From a virus (Duplodnaviria > Caudoviricetes): DNA of 54,613 nucleotides. A model generated the notes under the pieces. The model had not been told where the DNA came from, searched no databases, and was given only the letters and a program-made list of their open reading frames with translations. The position numbers were made by a program, and so were the translations under genes. The stretch is from positions 1-54,613 of IMG/VR virus record IMGVR_UViG_3300043432_000146; one strand, given 5' to 3'. How positions within the stretch are numbered: the first letter of the stretch is position 1; every line of letters begins with the position of its first letter. Below, in pieces: positions 1,969 to 13,825 of the stretch.

Positions 1969-2511
1969 CTAGCCACAATAGACCCTCTCGGACTGACGAC
2001 CATACATCTTCTTAAAATCAGCAACCTTAGCACGAATGGCGTCCTCAGGTTCACCGTCGGACTCCATCTTGCTCACGATGGTAGCGAGTTGTTGGCGATA
2101 AGATTCTGGAAGACGGTCAGTGCTCGTGATCCGGTAACACGGAACAAAGTAGATGTTGTAATAAGGACCAAGCTTTACGGTATGCGAACGAAAAACCTTT
2201 TCAGCAGTTTCTGCCCTAGCAGCAAATTCTGCCCGTGCCTTTTCAGCAGTTTCTGCCCTAGCAGCAAATTCTGCCCGTGCCTTTTCAGCAGTTTCTGCCC
2301 TAGCAGCAAATTCTGCCGCTTTAACCTTTATATCGGTCACAGCTTTATCATTCCAGCGGCCGATCAGTCGTTCACAACCTGGAGTCAACCACGTTATGCT
2401 AACGACCAAAGAAAGTACCAATATTGGCAACCTAAAAACCTTCCAAATAGTGAAGACTGCCATGCCGCCGAACGCCAGTGCAGCAAGTAATTTAGTTGTT
2501 GTTTTTTCCAT
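1969..2511 (-). CDS. membrane protein with 14-aa coiled-coil tandem repeats
   Basis: Two hydrophobic N-terminal segments; (AEFAARAETAEKAR)x3. Confidence 0.7.
   Translation of the reverse strand: MEKTTTKLLAALAFGGMAVFTIWKVFRLPILVLSLVVSITWLTPGCERLIGRWNDKAVTDIKVKAAEFAARAETAEKARAEFAARAETAEKARAEFAARAETAEKVFRSHTVKLGPYYNIYFVPCYRITSTDRLPESYRQQLATIVSKMESDGEPEDAIRAKVADFKKMYGRQSERVYCG
2196..2317. repeat. 42-bp perfect tandem repeat, ~2.9 copies
   Basis: Unit ccttttcagcagtttctgccctagcagcaaattctgcccgtg. Confidence 0.9.
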
Positions 2512-3164: not shown

Positions 3165-3383
3165 CTAGTCGGTGTTTTGGCAGCTTAAACTACTTGGATC
3201 GTGACTAAATGACGCCTTCAGCAATTGCAACCATTGCCCATCGGCTAATGCAGCCTCATCTCTCATGCCTTTTGATAGATAGGATGCAATCTTGACCACA
3301 CTTGGTTTTCGTAACAGGCAGGCTCCAAGATTAGGATGTTGGCTACATAGGTAGCAATAGCAACTAAAATCAGCAGGGCTCAT
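3165..3383 (-). CDS. hypothetical protein
   Basis: ATGA overlap with the stop of paralog C. Confidence 0.5.
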   Translation of the reverse strand: MSPADFSCYCYLCSQHPNLGACLLRKPSVVKIASYLSKGMRDEAALADGQWLQLLKASFSHDPSSLSCQNTD

Positions 3384-4033
3384 GGTTCAACCTCAATAAA
3401 TTTGGGGGCAAGCTGGTTCAAAGTGGCTTCAAGCCTGATATTTGCCATACCCATTGCCGCAGCCATTGCCGCAGCCCTTGCATCCTCTGCCGCATCCCCT
3501 GCCGCAGCCCATGCTGCAGCCCATGCTGCAGCCCTTGCCACAGCCCCTGCTGCATCCCTTGCCACAGCCCATGCCGCATCCATTGCCACAGCCCATGCCG
3601 CATCCCTTGCCGCAGCCAATTCAGCATCAGTAGCTTTTCCATCAATCCATCTACGTTTCACAGCAATAGCTGCTATGCTTCTTGGATCTGGATCAGCCAT
3701 AGCAGACAATGCTCTTTCAGCCTCATCACAAGCAAATGTATGCAATGCCTTTGTAGCATCGGCATACCATAGCACAGTGCGTTCTGATGCTACTAGCTTA
3801 TCGTCACTCTCCACAATGGCCCCACTGCATCTAACGCGACATACAATAGATCCTGGAGCATATTTCAAGGCATCAAGCGCCCTTATAGATGCATGTAAAC
3901 CAGATACACACATCTTTAGCTCACCAAGATGGTAATAACTTCGTCTAGCAAGGGTCTGCCCATCCCGCAACAAACCAGTATCAGCTACAAAGTGCCATGC
4001 CAGAACGCTGTTACTCTGCTTCTCTGTTAACAT
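3380..4033 (-). CDS. Paralog C: DUF7666-like/Imm5-like protein with Ala/Trp-rich repeats
   Basis: [43 protein letters not shown] repeats. Confidence 0.85.
3608..3775. repeat. 168-bp exact direct repeat, copy 2
   Basis: Identical to 262..429. Confidence 0.9.
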
Positions 4034-4233
4034 GTTGGCCAGTCTCCTTGTAATAGTAAGGCCTCTAACTCCAGGTTTGTCAATGTTTTAAGGTCTTTAT
4101 CAGCAGCAGGCAGATGGGGTAAGCAGTAAGCTAATAACATAAACTTCTGTAACCTCAATGCTTTTTCCTGCTGGTTAGGCAACCAAAGGGAATCAGAAGA
4201 CCAAGGATCATCTGAGATTTGTTTGAAAACCAT
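4027..4233 (-). CDS. hypothetical protein
   Basis: 68-aa ORF, GAGGA RBS; N-terminus KQISDDP resembles KQLPDNP of the adjacent ORF. Confidence 0.55.
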   Translation of the reverse strand: MVFKQISDDPWSSDSLWLPNQQEKALRLQKFMLLAYCLPHLPAADKDLKTLTNLELEALLLQGDWPTC

Positions 4234-4243
4234 TAGCTGTCCT

Positions 4244-4465
4244 CTAGTTAGGATCAGTACGCAACAGCAGTTTCAAAGCTCGACTACAGATCTGCCTATC
4301 ATCCACAGACATGTGATCTGTGTTGGCATGTCTGATTAGATCTACAATCAGAGCCCTTGCGCTCTTAGGTTTGTCCATGAGCTTACCTGATCTCTGCAAC
4401 CAATTGATCCACTCAAGGATCTCAGGATCTGTCATAGGATTATCAGGTAGTTGTTTAGAAATCAT
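4244..4465 (-). CDS. hypothetical protein
   Basis: 73-aa ORF in the leftward gene run. Confidence 0.6.
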   Translation of the reverse strand: MISKQLPDNPMTDPEILEWINWLQRSGKLMDKPKSARALIVDLIRHANTDHMSVDDRQICSRALKLLLRTDPN

Positions 4466-4539
4466 GGCATGTTACCATTTCCATTCATTGTGGATACTTA
4501 GCTGCCGGTCTTTTAGCACTGGCCGGCAAGTGGTCAATC

Positions 4540-4567
4540 ATTATACGTCCGTTCGTCAGATTGACAA
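4540..4567 (-). promoter_or_regulatory. possible sigma70 promoter
   Basis: TTGTCA-16bp-TATAAT upstream of ORF 4465. Confidence 0.4.
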
Positions 4568-4661
4568 TTGAGAACGAGACAGATAAGGCTGGCTAATTTG
4601 TTGGCAGCTACTCACACACCTTATCAGGATGTTTTCGCCCAAGCTAGGCTTGCTTAAGGCC

Positions 4662-4721
4662 AGCATATTACTAATCAGTGTTTTGATTAGTTTCGTCCCA
4701 TTAGGACTCATCAGATATGCT
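4662..4721 (-). ncRNA. type I hammerhead ribozyme
   Basis: Minus strand reads AGCAUAU-CUGAUGA-GUCC UAAUG GGAC-GAAA-CUAAUCA AAACAC UGAUUAG-UA-AUAUGCU: complete conserved core, three perfect stems, GUA cleavage triplet (cut between 4669 and 4668); intergenic and in the sense orientation of flanking genes. Confidence 0.92.
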
Positions 4722-4742
4722 AAACTGAGACCAGACCAAAAT

Positions 4743-5249
4743 CTATCTCCGGTTGAATCCTTTCAGCTTCTCTTTCTGTGGTCTGGATTCGTGTATGATT
4801 GTGCTTTTTAGACCTTTACCAGCATGAGGAGCATAAAGCCCTTTAGTGATTTTAGCAGCCTCGTAATCATCGTTCTTTGGTTGGATTACAGGTTCGTGCA
4901 AGGTTTCAAAAGCACGTCTAAGGTGATTTGACTTGTCTCTCCAAGTAGTGTTGTAGAGTTTATCAAAACACCCTTTACATACTCTACCAGTAATCTTTTT
5001 GGGGAAGTAGTGCTCAGCAGAGGTAGGAACACTAGCAACCGCCCCATCAATAACAAAATGAGTCAGGCTATCTTTTCTCAGTTTGATCCATGAGACAACG
5101 ATACGACCGTAGTGTGAAGTATGAAGATCAACAACAGCCTTACACACCATACAGCCAAGTGTGGTAGGAATGAAGTTATCAATCTTTGTCATGCTCAACA
5201 ATCTACGGGATAAACTCATTAGCAACCTGCCTTGCCTTGCATACTGCAT
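4743..5249 (-). CDS. hypothetical protein with two CxxC pairs (possible Zn-binding)
   Basis: CMVC and CKGC; start codon uncertain. Confidence 0.65.
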   Translation of the reverse strand: MQYARQGRLLMSLSRRLLSMTKIDNFIPTTLGCMVCKAVVDLHTSHYGRIVVSWIKLRKDSLTHFVIDGAVASVPTSAEHYFPKKITGRVCKGCFDKLYNTTWRDKSNHLRRAFETLHEPVIQPKNDDYEAAKITKGLYAPHAGKGLKSTIIHESRPQKEKLKGFNRR

Positions 5250-5311
5250 AACTCACTATGCAATATATACTCTAGCGCCCGACTTCCCGCCGGACCTGCG
5301 CCGACTGGGTG

Positions 5312-5342
5312 ACGATACCACGGCCGGCGGGGGGCGTGTCAA
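5312..5342 (-). promoter_or_regulatory. possible sigma70 promoter
   Basis: TTGACA-19bp-TATCGT with extended -10 TG; spacer is long. Confidence 0.4.
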
Positions 5343-5497
5343 ACGGGTTTTCGGACGGTTCCCAGGATGCCCCCAGGACGGCCCAGGACGGCCCAGGATC
5401 GACGAACGATCGTCGAGGTAGGCTTGCCTACCGGGGATAGCGAAAGTGGTGGCGAAAGCTGGCCGGCCCTAGCAGGCTTGGCGGGAAAAGCTGGCAG

Positions 5498-5539
5498 AAA
5501 AGACAAAAGGCGATACCGGATTGCTCCGATACCGCCTTT
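5498..5539 (-). terminator. rho-independent terminator
   Basis: AAAGGCGGTATCGGA-GCAA-TCCGGTATCGCCTTTTGTCTTTT downstream of ORF 5567..6028. Confidence 0.7.
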
Positions 5540-5566
5540 GCCTTGTGACCGAACCGTATAGAACGT

Positions 5567-6028
5567 CTACGCTTCCAAGCGTTCGACGCCAGCAGATCGC
5601 CCGGATGAACGGCCTACCTTGCCTCCAGACGATTGCTCGACGTTCTTGATCCAGGCGTCGAAACCGTCCAGAACTTCATTTTTGAATTCTTCGAGGTGGA
5701 TCTGGCCTTCGGCGTCGTCCTTGCCTACAGTGATACCTTTCGGCAGGCTGAAACGTTCAAACTTCTGAGCGTATCGGCCATCTGCCCGTTGCTCGATTGT
5801 CCGTTCCATGTAAATGGACGCGGAAATCGTGACCAAATTGCCTAGAACGAAATCGACATGAGCCAATCGCATGTTGCTCTTGGCTTTGTCGTATTTGTCC
5901 TCGTACCACTTGGGATTGGCCACCAGTCGAAAAGTAGGCTTCCCTAGCAGCTTGGCAATCGGGTTGCTCTTTTCCTTCCTCGGTTCGGTCGGTGTTGCCG
6001 CCATCTGTCGCGCGATCTCTCCGGCCAT
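5567..6028 (-). CDS. hypothetical protein (GC-rich codon usage; weakly SpoVG-like pattern)
   Basis: 153-aa ORF with GAGGGTG RBS and its own terminator; fold suggestion is by eye only. Confidence 0.7.
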   Translation of the reverse strand: MAGEIARQMAATPTEPRKEKSNPIAKLLGKPTFRLVANPKWYEDKYDKAKSNMRLAHVDFVLGNLVTISASIYMERTIEQRADGRYAQKFERFSLPKGITVGKDDAEGQIHLEEFKNEVLDGFDAWIKNVEQSSGGKVGRSSGRSAGVERLEA

Positions 6029-6149
6029 GTTGTCACCCTCTGTAGCGTCCCTGGGGACGCGAAACCCGGCCTCGGCATGATTGCCGGCCGGTAACGTGCG
6101 TTCAGCCTACCACAGCGCAGCCTGATGCGGTCAAGCCGGGCCGATTGAT

Positions 6150-6177
6150 TGGATCGTTAGGTTGACTAGGTAGGCAG
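6150..6177. repeat. 28-bp inverted repeat, left arm
   Basis: tggatcgttaggtt-gac-taggtaggcag matches the reverse complement of 6546..6573 at 26/28 positions. Confidence 0.85.
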
Positions 6178-6309
6178 TGCGAAATGAGAATTCAGAGACG
6201 GTCAAAACGATTAGTATCGCCTATGTAGAGGTAATCTTGCTGGCCTCGCCACTCTTGCCAGCGAGCCTTGACGTTGTGCCATACGAGCCTAAGTAGGCTG
6301 AGCATTGGC

Positions 6310-6531
6310 CTAGTCCCGTCTTTTCCAGCTCGGAGAATCTGATGGTTCAGCCGTCCGAATGAAGTCGGCTGTTACCTCTGAAATGGGGATTCGCTCGCCC
6401 ATATCTAGGTCATAGGCGGTTTTGGCTTTAGGTCCACTGACGTATGCGGCATTGCCATACGTTGTGAGGTAGATCCCTTTGCGTAGTCCTTTGGCTGTGG
6501 CATCTAGCTTGTGTTCGGGTGCAAGGTCCAT
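6310..6531 (-). CDS. small hypothetical protein enclosed by the inverted repeats
   Basis: 73-aa ORF with GGAG RBS. Confidence 0.7.
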   Translation of the reverse strand: MDLAPEHKLDATAKGLRKGIYLTTYGNAAYVSGPKAKTAYDLDMGERIPISEVTADFIRTAEPSDSPSWKRRD

Positions 6532-6545
6532 TGTAGACTCCAGTT

Positions 6546-6573
6546 CTGCCTACCTAATGAACCTAACGATCCA
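6546..6573. repeat. 28-bp inverted repeat, right arm
   Basis: ctgcctaccta-atg-aacctaacgatcca. Confidence 0.85.
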
Positions 6574-7282
6574 TTGTCCCCTAGTGCCAGTAACAGCCTA
6601 AGCCTTGCCTGGTCTATGGTTCCCGACAGCCCATTATGTCAAGTGGCGCCGGCTTCCAGCCCCGTCATTTAACAAGCAAACGCGCTGCCATATGACAGAA
6701 GCCGACTTAGACGTAACCAGACCGACTTTATGGGCGCTTTGTCATATCCTGGCATGTCCAGTCTGTTCGATTATGAGACCGCTAACTGATAGGCCAGCTT
6801 AGACTTAGCAGGCATGTCTGATTATGGCACGATGTCCGACCTGGTTGGTCTGGTATATGCTAACCTACTGACTGCTAACGAGATAGCGCCCTGCTACTTT
6901 GATGATGTACTAACCCACTGAGCCATAAGGACTTAGCTGATGTACCCTGTTGTCATATAGAGTACCCCGGGGTCCCCCTCCTGCACACAGATGCACACCC
7001 CAGCCGGGAGGGGTGTCTTCACCAGAAAATTTAAAAAAGTTCAAACTGGCTAAAGTCTTTGTTTGCAGTAGGTTAGAGAGAAATAGTGGATAGGCAGACA
7101 GGTGTCGATAGGCTGAAATATGCCTAAAATCAGGCACTTTTAGGCACTTATTGAATAAGCTAAGCTTATAACCCATTGATTACAATGGTTGTTAGCTTAA
7201 CCTGGTTTTTCTGGGAAGCCAAAGGCGGGGTGTAAGGTAAAGAGTGCTAAAATCTAGATAGATAGATAGCTAACAAGAGTGC

Positions 7283-7357
7283 TAATTTATAGTTTACTGA
7301 CAAATACCCCTTCTATATAGGATCATGAATATGTCAGTAGAAATTTTCCCCACCCTA
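7283..7357 (+). repeat. ~75-bp dispersed hairpin element, copy 1 (origin-like)
   Basis: taatttatagtttACTGACAaataccccttCTATATAGgatcatgaataTGTCAGTagaaattttccccacccta; homologous to 38061..38136 (reverse) and 53784..53858. Confidence 0.85.
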
Positions 7358-7566
7358 GTATGAAAAATTCCCCACTCCCTATTTGCCTTGCCAATCTTGA
7401 CCAGACGATAGGTAGTAGACAGCGGCTATGAGGGCTAGAAATATAAGCATGGTGATAGTATATAACCATAAGCTAGCTGTGTCAAACATACCTATATGCC
7501 AAAATCATGTAATATAGCCTCCATAAGCCTAAAAATGCTGTAAAACAGCTATTAAACAATGACCAC

Positions 7567-7596
7567 TTGACAACTTAGCTATACTTGTGCTATACT
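7567..7596 (+). promoter_or_regulatory. sigma70 promoter for the packaging/structural operon
   Basis: TTGACA-18bp-TATACT with extended -10 TG. Confidence 0.7.
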
Positions 7597-7769
7597 CTGA
7601 ACATACCTTTTAATGATTTATTAACTCATCCAAGACCCACAAAACCGCTTTGTCTTCTATAGCTTACTCCCTCCCCACCAAGCTATATTGAGGCTGACAA
7701 ATGCCAGGTACAATAGCCAAAAGCAGCGGCACCTGGATCCTCTTAATTACTTGATACTAAAGGAATAAT

Positions 7770-8095: not shown

Positions 8096-8734
8096 TTGTC
8101 AGAAGCAGATAGCCCGCCTCTCCGCAAAGTTGGACCTGGAAAGCACAAGCTTGGATGTAGGTGCTTTGTCTGCAGCCCACGCCCCAGGGCCTCGAAGGCC
8201 CTCGTTGGACCAGTTAGACCAGATGGGGCAGATGAGAGTTCCGCGCCTACGAAAACAATATTCGTAGATCCTCATGCTCCAGTAATCCACGCTGAGCTAC
8301 CCCTATTCAAACGTAAGGATAATGCTCGCTACTATATTGCTCAGTGGGTAGCGATGCGGCTTAAGAATCCTACGATTACTAACGTAGAGGTTGCGGCGAA
8401 GCTTGGGATTGCTAGGACTACTTTACAGGCTATCATCCGTCAAGCTAAGGATGAGGGCTGGTTGCAGTTTAGTGACCCAATGACTCGCATTGAATACGAG
8501 ATTATCCCTAAGGCAGTCGATAATCTAAATTATTGGTTAGAGAAGCGTGATAAGGTGGCTACCCTAGAAACCATGAAGGGCACGGCATTTAAGGATTACC
8601 AAGCTTATAAGGGTACTGGCGATAATGGTAATACTACTTATCTGGCCCTGAAGATCGAGATGCCGGATGGGGAGGAGGCTCCAAAGGTTATTGAAGGCAA
8701 GATTGTAGGGAAGCCAAAGGAGCTTAAAGAATAG
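8096..8734 (+). CDS. HTH DNA-binding protein, putative terminase small subunit
   Basis: HTH TNVEVAAKLGIARTTLQAII; position upstream of TerL; N-terminal HxxxCxCxxC. Confidence 0.6.
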   Translation: MSEADSPPLRKVGPGKHKLGCRCFVCSPRPRASKALVGPVRPDGADESSAPTKTIFVDPHAPVIHAELPLFKRKDNARYYIAQWVAMRLKNPTITNVEVAAKLGIARTTLQAIIRQAKDEGWLQFSDPMTRIEYEIIPKAVDNLNYWLEKRDKVATLETMKGTAFKDYQAYKGTGDNGNTTYLALKIEMPDGEEAPKVIEGKIVGKPKELKE

Positions 8735-9524: not shown

Positions 9525-10982
9525 ATGGCCAAATGGGTATCCCTTCCAGCAGAACCTCTTCGTTATCAGCCTGAGCAAAAAGCCTTCTGGCAGGCAATCA
9601 AAGATCGTGTCTGCAGGAAATGTAAAACTGAGTTTACTGTAGCAGAAACTAAGTTCCTCTGTCCTAAATGCAGTTCAAAGGGATTTCGGAAGTGGGATCG
9701 TCTTACTATTATTGCTGGTAGACGATTTGGCAAGACCAGGGGGGGCTCTATCGCAGGAGCTTTTGAGGCTACAATCCCAAACTCTCTAGGTTGGGCTTGT
9801 GCTCCATCTAACCAAAAGCTCCATCGTTATGTCATTCCTGCCTTTCAGCAACTCATTCCAGAAGATTGGGTTGCTGATTGGAGCACAGAATATCTAGATC
9901 TACGGTTGAAGAATGGCTCGCTGATCCACTTCCAGACTCTCGAACATCCAGACCAAGGCCGAGGACAGGGCCTAGATTGGTTATGGATTGATGAGGTTTG
10001 TGAGCTAAGCAAGTCCCACTGGGAAGTTATCAGGCCATCATTAGCTGGTGATACAGTAGCTTTCTTTACAACTTCTCCACGCGGTTATGATTGGGTCTAC
10101 GAGGAACTATACAAACCAGCTGAAGACGGTTTACCTGGCTACTGGGGCTGCCACGCTAAAACCTCAGAAAGTGCTAATCCCCGCATCTCTGCTGAGTTCC
10201 TAGCTCGTGAACGTGCTCAGATGTCAGATGCAATGTATCGGCAGGAATATGAGGCAGACTTTGTTATCTTCACAGGTGCAGTTTACGGGGGCCTTGTTGA
10301 TCCACAGATTCTCAGAAGCACCGAAGAAGTCAAAAAACTCATACCAGAATGGCCTGCGGTTGATCCTAGCCGACCAGTGCTTATCGGTATCGATACTGGG
10401 GCAGATCATCCCTTCGGAGCGATCAAGCTAGTCTCCACTGAAGCTGGCTTGATTGCGGTTGGTGAATATCTAGAGCGTAACCGCCCATTTATCCAACATG
10501 CCAGCTCCCTGAAGATGATGGCTGGCTATAGTCCAGTCAAGTGGGCTATCAATAAGAATGAGCGTCAACAAACTATAGAGCTTGCCCAGCACGGGATCTT
10601 TTGTCAGAAGGCGGAGAATGATGTTATTGCCGGCACTGAACGGGTCAAAAGTTGGCTCCATGCTAAGCAGCTTTGGCTTGTAGAGCAAGCATGTCCCCTT
10701 ACTATTAGACAATTAAAAGCTTATCGCTGGGCCGATAATGAGACACGTAAGGAAGAGAAGCGCAGTGAGCGGGTCTTTAAAAAGGATGATGAGCTTCCAG
10801 ATTGCTTAAGATATGCCCTCATGACTTGGCCTATTTTACCAAAGTATGTAGAGCCACAAGACAAGCCCAGAGATATTTCCCACTTACCCTGGGAAGCTAG
10901 AGCTACCATTGAGCGTATGCGTCGAATCGATAAACCCCAGCCTGAGGAGCCGGAAAGCATCACTGGGGACTTTTGGTCATAA
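9525..10982 (+). CDS. terL: terminase large subunit
   Basis: Walker A AGRRFGKT, Walker B LWIDE, TTSP coupling motif, nuclease IGIDTG and DELPDCLRY; N-terminal Zn-ribbon insertion. Confidence 0.95.
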   Translation: MAKWVSLPAEPLRYQPEQKAFWQAIKDRVCRKCKTEFTVAETKFLCPKCSSKGFRKWDRLTIIAGRRFGKTRGGSIAGAFEATIPNSLGWACAPSNQKLHRYVIPAFQQLIPEDWVADWSTEYLDLRLKNGSLIHFQTLEHPDQGRGQGLDWLWIDEVCELSKSHWEVIRPSLAGDTVAFFTTSPRGYDWVYEELYKPAEDGLPGYWGCHAKTSESANPRISAEFLARERAQMSDAMYRQEYEADFVIFTGAVYGGLVDPQILRSTEEVKKLIPEWPAVDPSRPVLIGIDTGADHPFGAIKLVSTEAGLIAVGEYLERNRPFIQHASSLKMMAGYSPVKWAINKNERQQTIELAQHGIFCQKAENDVIAGTERVKSWLHAKQLWLVEQACPLTIRQLKAYRWADNETRKEEKRSERVFKKDDELPDCLRYALMTWPILPKYVEPQDKPRDISHLPWEARATIERMRRIDKPQPEEPESITGDFWS

Positions 10983-11367: not shown

Positions 11368-13722
11368 TTGCCTGACATAACAGCAGAATCTACTAATACA
11401 GTATTTGGCTCTCAGACTGAGACCCATAGTCTAATAGCAGCTGGGAGTATTCCTTCTGCCTTCCCTACAGTAACCAAGACATCTGAATATGATGCTCAGC
11501 GGTTACTGACAATGTTTGGGGCACTAAAAAGGGAGTCTACCGAATACCGCTGGATCTGGGAACGTGAATGGCTTAGAGATCTATTCTATGTAGCTAATAG
11601 ACAATGGATCTTCTTCCACCCTACTAGACGTGAGTGGATTGACAAAAGATTACAAAAGTGGATTCCTCGGCCAGTTACTAACAAGATGGCAGAGACAGTA
11701 CAGTCCATTAGAACCACGCTTGGTGCGATTAACCTATCTATTACAGCCCGTCCAGTTGGTAGTGATGCACAAGCTATTGCAGCAGCTGAAATTGTAGATC
11801 AGCTTGGTCCTCTGATTCATGAAGAGCATAACATGAATCAAGTAATGAGGGAAGCTGACTTTTGGCTTATCACTTGTGGTAATGCCTGCCTTCAGCTAAG
11901 TTGGGATCGAGATGCCAGATTCAATAGAACTTTTATTCAATCTGAGCAGTGTCCAGCTTGCCAGGGAATTTTTCAGTCCAAAGCTATAATGGATGCTGGT
12001 AATACGTGTCCCCAGTGTGGGGGTCACTTCTTACAGCCAGCTGTAAGCCCTGATGGGCAAAAGATCGGTGAATGGATATCATTTGGAAAGGGCAAAACTA
12101 CTGCTCTAAGTCCATTTGAGTATGCCTTCCCACCAAATATCACTAGATTTGACGATTTACCTTACATAATCCGCCTAAGATGGAGAGATAAACACTGGTT
12201 CGAGGCTAATATGCCTGATCTAGTGCCCAAGCTTACTTGGGAAAAGTCTCCGGCTGATCGGTCGATGCAGATCTTCAAATCCTTAGCCCTAACTAATGAT
12301 GTTGGTACAGGCTCACAGTTCGCGTATCTAGGTGCTGCTGGTGCTCATACAGTAGAGGGCATTACTGAATATGAGCTTTGGCTGCGCCCTACACCAGAAT
12401 TTCCTGAGGGTCTAGTCATGCGAGTGGCCGGGGATCAGAGCCCTCAGCTTATGGTTATGCCTGAGGAGGGCTTACCAGGGCCTATTCCATACAAAGACAT
12501 CGAAGGTAATCCATTATTCCCCTTCCTACATGCTCAATATGAACATCTAGGTGGCCGATTGTATGGCCGATCTGCAGTTTCACCACTAATCCAGAAGCAA
12601 GATCAGCTAAATCAGCTAGATTCGCTTATCCAGCTCATTGTCCAGCGCATGGCAAACCCAATTTGGTTGATTCCAGAAGGGGCCGGCATTGATCAATTCA
12701 CAGGTGAACCTGGGCTAGTCATGAAGTGGAATCCAATGGCTGCAAATGGGCAGGGCAAACCAGAGCGAATTCCTGGCGAAGAGGTTCCTAATTCTCTCTA
12801 TCAGCTGCGTAGCCAGATCCTAAAAGATATTGAGGAGATGGCTGGTACCTACGACATCATCAAGGGCCAAAAGCCTGCTGGTGTTGAGGCTTTCTCTGCC
12901 CTCCAGCTCTTAGTTGAACGCTCACAGAGTCGATTTACCTCCGTTTTCCAGGCCAGAGGGGAGATGTATCGTAACTGGGCCTCCCTTGCGGTAGAAATGG
13001 AGCGTCAATTCGGCCCACATACACGAACCTGGGTCGTTATTGGGGCTAATCGAGGCTATACCTTTAGACATTTTGAGAATGCTCAGCTACAGGGGCAGGT
13101 TTCCATCCAAATCGAAGATGGAAGTAACATGCCGAAGACAGCCTTAGGCAAAAGGGCCTCTATTGAGCAGGCAAATCAGCTTGGTCTACTAGATCCTAAC
13201 GACCCAGACCAGAAATACGCCCTACTGAGTAACTTTGGTCTATCTGATCTAGTTCCGGCCCTCGATATTCATGTCCAGGCAGCCCTACAGATCCAAGATA
13301 GCTTTGAAAGGTGGGCTCAGCAGCCTGTTGGCCCCCCACCACTTATCATTAAACCTTGGTTTAGCGGGCCAATTCATCTTAATGAATGTATCAAGTGGTT
13401 AAATACAGATAGAATGCGTGAGCTTGTAGCTAGTAACCCAATGTTTGAGCAGCTGGTTACGGCTTATCTACAGCAGCTTCAGATAATGGCTATGCCGCCC
13501 CCTATGTCGGCCCCCGGACCTGAAGGTCCTGGTGCTGCAGGTGGCGGACAGGCCCTGCGGAATAGTAATAAAGAATTCCTGCAACGTCATCGCCAGTACG
13601 TCGTCGCGGCCGGTGGCGGACAGGCCCTGCGGAATAGTAATAAAGAATCCGGTAGTCCCAAAACCGTTCCTAGAGGTAATGCTACTCGACCAAATGAAGG
13701 CCCACAGATGGGTCCTGTCTAA
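11368..13722 (+). CDS. portal protein
   Basis: 784 aa after TerL; YGRSAVSPLIQKQDQLNQLDS and ANPIWLIP portal-like segments; Pro/Gly-rich C-terminus. Confidence 0.9.
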   Translation: MPDITAESTNTVFGSQTETHSLIAAGSIPSAFPTVTKTSEYDAQRLLTMFGALKRESTEYRWIWEREWLRDLFYVANRQWIFFHPTRREWIDKRLQKWIPRPVTNKMAETVQSIRTTLGAINLSITARPVGSDAQAIAAAEIVDQLGPLIHEEHNMNQVMREADFWLITCGNACLQLSWDRDARFNRTFIQSEQCPACQGIFQSKAIMDAGNTCPQCGGHFLQPAVSPDGQKIGEWISFGKGKTTALSPFEYAFPPNITRFDDLPYIIRLRWRDKHWFEANMPDLVPKLTWEKSPADRSMQIFKSLALTNDVGTGSQFAYLGAAGAHTVEGITEYELWLRPTPEFPEGLVMRVAGDQSPQLMVMPEEGLPGPIPYKDIEGNPLFPFLHAQYEHLGGRLYGRSAVSPLIQKQDQLNQLDSLIQLIVQRMANPIWLIPEGAGIDQFTGEPGLVMKWNPMAANGQGKPERIPGEEVPNSLYQLRSQILKDIEEMAGTYDIIKGQKPAGVEAFSALQLLVERSQSRFTSVFQARGEMYRNWASLAVEMERQFGPHTRTWVVIGANRGYTFRHFENAQLQGQVSIQIEDGSNMPKTALGKRASIEQANQLGLLDPNDPDQKYALLSNFGLSDLVPALDIHVQAALQIQDSFERWAQQPVGPPPLIIKPWFSGPIHLNECIKWLNTDRMRELVASNPMFEQLVTAYLQQLQIMAMPPPMSAPGPEGPGAAGGGQALRNSNKEFLQRHRQYVVAAGGGQALRNSNKESGSPKTVPRGNATRPNEGPQMGPV
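13540..13648. repeat. 37-bp direct repeat / 35-bp unique spacer / 37-bp direct repeat inside the portal gene (CRISPR-like geometry)
   Basis: ggtggcggacaggccctgcggaatagtaataaagaat at 13540..13576 and 13612..13648; spacer tcctgcaacgtcatcgccagtacgtcgtcgcggcc. Confidence 0.85.
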
Positions 13723-13825
13723 GTCCTTCACAGCCTAGATAGGCTTTATATAATCAGCTTACTGATCGTAGAAGGAAGTAAGCGTCTCAACGCGGAACTG
13801 ACCGCGAAACCAAAGGTGAGAGCTA

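Follow-up and report, generated by a model that had tools for sequence, protein, structure and literature searches.

A type I hammerhead ribozyme motif behind a 168-aa gene in the leftward arm of an uncultured freshwater tailed phage

Hundreds of bacterial hammerhead ribozymes, covering all three topologies and in many cases lying near prophage genes, were described by Perreault 2011 (PMC3088659). That paper also describes clusters of hammerheads that flank single genes, together with the cleavage of native polycistronic transcripts of ~2 kb in vitro and, for one triple arrangement, in E. coli; it proposes that long phage transcripts are processed in this way into gene- or operon-length mRNAs (PMC3088659). 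In total RNA of Desulfovibrio vulgaris, cyPhyRNA-seq has detected that three type II hammerheads located close to phage-like genes cleave themselves (PMC8782182), and a 2019 review states that the purpose of these ribozymes is still to be defined (PMC6765202). The motif considered here resembles the hammerheads of Perreault 2011 in its core, its three-helix junction, its place between co-oriented small phage genes and the transcript cutting proposed for it. Unlike the type II motifs and multi-ribozyme clusters emphasized in that paper (PMC3088659), it is of type I and occurs once in 54.6 kb.

The DNA analyzed, called the window in what follows, is a whole IMG/VR record, linear and 54,613 bases long, with an estimated completeness of 73%. 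Near-identical DNA occurs only in DNA sequencing runs from freshwater and freshwater sediment, and the source is an uncultured freshwater tailed phage. The genes for the large terminase (9525-10982) and the portal (11368-13722) are followed by a long series of plus-strand ORFs, and all long ORFs to the left of ~7470 lie on the minus strand, in a run from ~7470 to 1. Two promoter-like sites point outward, 7485 to 7457 on the minus strand and 7567 to 7596 on the plus strand. Because of this run and these sites, "leftward operon" is a fair name for the gene layout, and leftward transcription would be expected from the minus-strand ORFs together with the promoter-like site at 7485 to 7457. A previous interpretation, made from the letters of the DNA and called here the sequence-only reading, had placed the motif in an early leftward operon; the layout (ORF run, promoter-like site) bears out the direction, and the timing is presumed. 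The 54,613-base window contains no tRNA or tmRNA gene, and a blastn search of 3300-6100 against phage records returned a single, uninformative match of 90 nt.

A complete type I hammerhead had been claimed at 4662-4721 on the minus strand, and all of its claimed elements are present by sequence, by descriptor and by the covariance model R1 (Table 1). Stem I joins A4721-U4715 with A4668-U4662 in 7 Watson-Crick pairs and can be extended by U4722.G4661 and U4723.G4660. Stem II joins G4707-C4704 with G4698-C4695 (4 pairs) and adds U4703.G4699, after which the loop is AAU, and stem III joins A4691-A4684 with U4677-U4670 in 8 pairs, including A15.1-U16.1, around a 6-nt loop. The three paired helices (I, 7+2 pairs; II, 4+1; III, 8) enclose a core that is unmutated by the criteria given in Perreault 2011 (C3 U4 G5 A6 N7 G8 A9, G12 A13 A14, A15.1, U16.1, H17; PMC3088659). 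The topology is type I, since stem I is the open helix and stems II and III are closed by loops. The cleavage triplet is GUA, with the predicted cut between 4669 and 4668. The motif lies on the same strand as its flanking genes, and the distance of about 20 nt that had been given from the 4743 stop is confirmed as 21 nt between the TAG stop of the 168-aa ORF (4745-4743) and A4721.

Table 1. Positions in the window of the ribozyme elements and of the features that surround them
Feature	Positions	Strand	Basis or remark
Type I hammerhead motif	4662..4721 (4660-4723 including two G.U pairs)	-	Sequence reading, descriptor, R1, fold
Stem I 5' strand AGCAUAU	4715..4721	-	Pairs with 4662-4668
Core C3-A9 CUGAUGA	4708..4714	-	Fits the core consensus of Perreault 2011 (PMC3088659)
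Stem II and loop II GUCC-UAAUG-GGAC	4695..4707	-	Sequence reading
Core G12 A13 A14 A15.1 = GAAA	4691..4694	-	Sequence reading
Stem III hairpin CUAAUCA-AAACAC-UGAUUAG	4671..4690	-	Sequence reading, fold
U16.1 (4670), A17 (4669); predicted scissile bond 4669/4668	4668..4670	-	Hammerhead numbering
Stem I 3' strand AUAUGCU; predicted 5'-OH start of the downstream RNA	4662..4668	-	Expected from hammerhead chemistry
168-aa ORF with two CxxC motifs	4743..5249	-	No Pfam/PHROG family
Terminator-like hairpin upstream of the 168-aa ORF	5506..5539	-	15 pairs, then a T-rich tail
Promoter-like site TTGTCA-16-TATAAT, 11/12	4540..4567	-	~95 nt downstream of the ribozyme
Next ORF, 73 aa	4244..4465	-	Starts 196 nt after the ribozyme; no family match
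83-aa ORF overlapping the 73-aa ORF	4320-4571	+	Pfam scan; no family match
Three DUF7666 paralogs with Ala/Trp-rich C-terminal repeats	1-681, 923-1621, 3380-4033	-	Pfam

GUC is the usual triplet, and cleavage at GUA is somewhat poorer. For fast cleavage at cellular Mg2+, a tertiary contact between stem I and loop II is needed. In the window motif an A is present at -7 but is paired with U, and the helix of stem I continues beyond it; no pseudoknot or other contact between stem I and loop II can be assigned there from the sequence. Because stem I is continuous over 7+2 pairs, this contact may differ or be missing.

A relaxed type I descriptor, with at least 4, 3 and 3 pairs in stems I, II and III, finds exactly one site on the two strands of the window, namely the motif at 4662-4721, and a broader descriptor (types I, II and III, any N7) again returns it as the sole site. 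Across 2000 dinucleotide-preserving shuffles of the whole window, the relaxed descriptor found 3 sites in total, and sites with at least 4 pairs in stem II, 6 in stem III and 6 in stem I numbered 0 in the 2000 shuffles. The hammerhead three-way junction is the minimum-energy fold in four of five nested contexts (64, 86, 106, 181 and 261 nt) and lies within 0.1 kcal/mol of it in the fifth. R1, built without the window from an alignment (A1) of 71 other viral-contig type I hammerheads among the matches listed, aligns over its full length (1-58) to 4723 to 4660 with 50.1 bits (E 3e-13), its sole match in 54.6 kb, although the pattern that collected its seed rows had been taken from the core and stem II of the window motif. 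The motif at 4662-4721 is very probably a real hammerhead motif of the phage class. A circular-RNA, or retrozyme-like, reading was rejected: it needs two ribozymes, and the window holds one hammerhead of any type.

The Rfam search for hammerheads that the sequence-only reading had proposed gave no match in the whole window at gathering thresholds, and the threshold of RF00163 (Hammerhead_1), with which the motif has the type I topology and the core in common, was not reached. In E-value mode, RF00008 scores 26.2 bits (cut-off 48.5) in the wrong topology, and RAGATH-1-hammerhead (RF03152) gives a sub-threshold match of 20.2 bits (cut-off 56.3) in the right one; this alignment runs over stems I-III but covers model positions 26-77 only, and the window motif is not a member of that family. 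As a control, 10 other viral loci (L006, L009, L014, L015, L027, L036, L055, L059, L075 and L122) were searched with Rfam 15 at gathering thresholds, and one of their 15 type I hammerheads defined by descriptor reaches RF00163 (36.1 bits, cut-off 34). As the other 14 sister motifs were also missed, the miss at gathering thresholds says little against the motif. For the same reason, and because its own score stays below the RF00163 threshold, the motif is filed under the hammerhead ribozyme class and not under that family.

Viral contigs hold many comparable motifs. A pattern defined by sequence alone, CUGAUGA followed by stem II GUCC/GGAC around a loop of 3-9 nt and by GAAAC, matched at least 118 stretches, and the 132 cores among the matches listed divide into 94 of type I, 32 of type III and 6 of neither. 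Since 126 of these 132 cores, which were found by sequence, complete a hammerhead fold, they argue for a large natural class without circularity. The pair counts of A1 (98.8% paired over 71 rows from the matches listed) are of another kind, because the rows were picked for pairing and any covariation in them is circular. Extended from the core and stem II into the first part of stem III, the exact pattern of the window motif had 0 matches in viral contigs. Under stricter settings the matches listed contain 79 type I motifs, with 6 pairs in stem I in 58, 5 in 13, 7 in 7 and 8 in 1. The 5' base flanking stem I (-7) is A in 47 of the 71 distinct motifs with full flanks among the matches listed, and is mostly unpaired.

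The window motif is like the A1 class in having A at -7, in its stem III hairpin and in its place after a same-strand ORF, and its stem II and loop II are identical over 13 letters to those of the L075 hammerhead. In contrast to the class, as judged from the matches listed, it has a stem I of 7+2 pairs, where 6 is the mode, and GUA, not GUC, as its triplet. Some members of the class occur in groups: L059 (1892-6179) and L119 each have five type I hammerheads within a few kb, in arrays between small genes. The L027 region 12433-13736 has an array of five tRNA genes, preceded at ~330 nt by a type I hammerhead.

The position of the class relative to stop codons is more regular than chance placement. 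In a count that used no gene caller, the stop of a long upstream frame (60 or more open codons, with the stop from 6 nt before to 10 nt after the start of stem I) abuts or overlaps 38 of 71 type I hammerheads among the matches listed, vs 4.7% of 1420 random places. Of these stops, again among the matches listed, 9 are the UGA within CUGAUGA and 8 are a UAA located where stem I ends. With a crude ORF picker, 35 of the 71 class members among the matches listed have a same-strand upstream ORF, with a median gap of 0 nt (quartiles, -6 and 89.5 nt), and 30 have a same-strand downstream ORF, at a median of 41 nt; 25 overlap a called ORF, and those calls may be spurious. This placement supports the type I hammerhead as part of the 3' end of the upstream gene. 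A1 class members often overlap the stop, whereas the window motif begins 21 nt past it, a looser version of the class layout. Titles and abstract starts yielded no report of stop codons embedded in phage hammerheads, a pattern that the supplement of Perreault 2011 may contain, and a literature search on the combination of self-cleaving hammerheads with Caudoviricetes found nothing.

A query with the terminase returned 20 related viral loci (58-96% identity), nine of which extend 5 kb or more upstream of the terminase gene. A hammerhead of any type is present in one of these nine assessable relatives, L122, whose terminase is 68% identical. The L122 hammerhead is of type I (52.7 bits) and lies on the strand opposite the terminase gene, ~6 kb upstream of it; its triplet is GUA, its 6-pair stem I is flanked by A and A, and the sequences of its stems I and III are unrelated to those in the window. 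It is located downstream of homologues of the window ORFs 6310-6531 and 5567-6028, at a non-homologous junction, its immediate neighbours not being homologous to those of the window motif. The closest relative, L120 (96%), ends inside its homologue of 5567-6028, before the ribozyme site, and was left out of the count. A predicted ribozyme thus recurs in the leftward arm of this phage group at different junctions, in agreement with the remark in Perreault 2011 that the identities of flanking genes are inconstant (PMC3088659). Near the L122 hammerhead, a tRNA gene (L122:2008-2082, minus) lies ~700 nt upstream, and a 17-codon CxxC frame (L122:1295-1348, minus) ends at the UGA of its CUGAUGA, probably by coincidence.

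At loci with homologues of the 168-aa gene, a hammerhead was found in 0 of the 3 that could be assessed (L121, L133 and L140). In L140 the next ORF directly follows the homologue, and L141, which ends too soon, was left out of the count. As the hammerhead is sporadic among the relatives, the ribozyme is not tied to the 168-aa gene. Closer to the window itself, X3 contigs, from a run of a different sample, cover 4543-4801 with zero differences. One X4 contig covering 4663-4814 has A for G at 4699 (minus), which turns the U.G pair of stem II into U-A; at a depth of 3.9 this change may be an error.

The 168-aa ORF itself has weak relatives in L121 and L133 (tblastn ~5e-10) and in the metagenome contigs L140 and L141 (48% and 45% identity), and is for this reason taken as a real gene; its protein has no relative in the viral-contig search and none by tblastn against 50,697 phage records. 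Four copies of TCCTGGG, 10 nt apart (5361-5400, minus), sit in a non-coding stretch of 60-65% G+C (5250-5500) between the hairpin at 5539 to 5506 and the 168-aa ORF, and could be iterons or operators. On the other side of the gene, the minus strand carries no terminator-like site between 4743 and 4466. The evidence for a promoter at 4567 to 4540 is weak, because 3300-7600 holds 5 such sites vs 5.3 expected from shuffles. The AUG of CUGAUGA opens a 51-aa ORF (4556-4711), which lacks a family match and was treated as spurious.

Pfam was scanned with 19 proteins (14 ORFs of the window arm, the plus-strand ORF 8096-8734 and four L122 ORFs). The sequence-only reading had described a downstream cluster of paralogs and a ferredoxin. 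The paralogs are the three DUF7666 proteins, one of which also has a weak Imm-5-like match below the cut-off; none of the 14 arm ORFs matched a ferredoxin family in Pfam, and the ferredoxin is not supported. In the 180-aa ORF at 1969-2511 (minus), which has no family match, a hydrophobic segment at the N terminus is followed by a tandem repeat of three units (AEFAARAETAEKAR).

The locus as a whole is probably best explained by a genuine type I hammerhead that cleaves a polycistronic leftward transcript behind the 168-aa gene, and as to its role, we lean towards mRNA 3'-end formation or operon processing. RNA polymerase would read leftward through the 168-aa ORF; folding of the three-way junction and self-cleavage after A4669 would follow immediately upon synthesis of the 3' strand of stem I (4668-4662). 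Cleavage by a hammerhead gives an upstream product ending in a 2',3'-cyclic phosphate and a downstream product beginning with a 5'-OH; where the motif is of type I, stems II and III stay with the former, and of the ribozyme the latter carries the 3' strand of stem I alone. The upstream mRNA would accordingly retain nearly all of the ribozyme, with hairpins II and III forming a structured 3' end that terminates in a 2',3'-cyclic phosphate, and the downstream RNA would begin with a 5'-OH at A4668. The cut would detach a downstream block, made up of the 73-aa ORF, the 68-aa ORF and the DUF7666 paralogs, from the message of the 168-aa gene; this block may also use its own promoter at 4567 to 4540. 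We infer minus-strand transcription, cleavage in vivo and any effect on the stability or expression of the mRNA. That cleavage takes the place of a terminator for the 168-aa mRNA, as first suggested, is consistent with the stretch free of terminator-like sites from 4743 to 4466 and with the stops of 38 of the 71 class members among the matches listed, the cleavage itself being a prediction. Counted against this explanation are the atypical stem I, the GUA triplet and a motif that is not conserved with its neighbours, as well as the hairpin at 5539 to 5506 and the promoter-like site at 4567 to 4540, both of which bear on read-through across the ribozyme.

The ribozyme might instead serve the downstream RNA, trimming read-through to a defined 5'-OH leader and so insulating the block of the 73-aa ORF and the DUF7666 paralogs, which would then be expressed alike from upstream read-through or from its own promoter. 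Such a role would suit a type I hammerhead, of which only 7 nt remain on the downstream product; it would also suit the class median of 41 nt to a same-strand downstream ORF (n=30, among the matches listed) and the halovirus transcript reported in Perreault 2011, whose 5' end lies within 3 nt of a hammerhead cut site (PMC3088659). In the window, however, the next minus-strand ORF is 196 nt off with a promoter-like site in between, and the class members among the matches listed hug the upstream stop, not the downstream start, which makes this role rather unlikely. The same non-random position relative to stop codons (among the matches listed) speaks against a neutral or selfish passenger, that is, an active or once-active hammerhead that arrived with a gene cassette and has no selected role. 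The intact core and helices also oppose that reading, as do the unchanged motif in the contig from the other sample and the pairing retained in the one variant seen. What a passenger would explain well is the sporadic distribution (among assessable loci, 1 of 9 terminase relatives and 0 of 3 with a homologue of the 168-aa gene), with L122 flanking genes unrelated to those of the window and with flanking gene identities that are inconstant in Perreault 2011 (PMC3088659); we consider it improbable.

It is very improbable that the motif is a chance look-alike or an inactive hammerhead-like sequence. Equally strong sites were found in 0 of 2000 shuffles and R1 returns an E-value of 3e-13, and the scores below Rfam gathering level, which would otherwise point to a look-alike, are shared by 14 of the 15 descriptor-defined type I hammerheads in the 10 viral loci. 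The atypically long and continuous stem I would fit an inactive sequence, and Perreault 2011 includes some inactive hammerhead-like RNAs (PMC3088659). The preferred reading remains that of a genuine hammerhead which would act on the transcript of the 168-aa gene.

The motif is an ordinary new example, hammerheads being common in phages and known there since 2011. Its practical value is modest and lies in a clean single-copy layout of gene, ribozyme, promoter-like site and next gene. For annotation pipelines it matters that the Rfam gathering cut-offs miss most phage type I hammerheads (14 of 15 in the control). For the biology of these viruses, it adds a well-formed example to a class whose role in phages remains undefined. 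Tentatively, phage type I hammerheads may form a general, terminator-independent 3'-end module fused to the stop of the gene that they serve, the message keeping the ribozyme as a protective 3' end with a cyclic phosphate; here, such a module would act as an insulator between the 168-aa gene and a DUF7666 block that has a promoter of its own. The class-wide embedding of stop codons is the sole point here that possibly deserves separate study.
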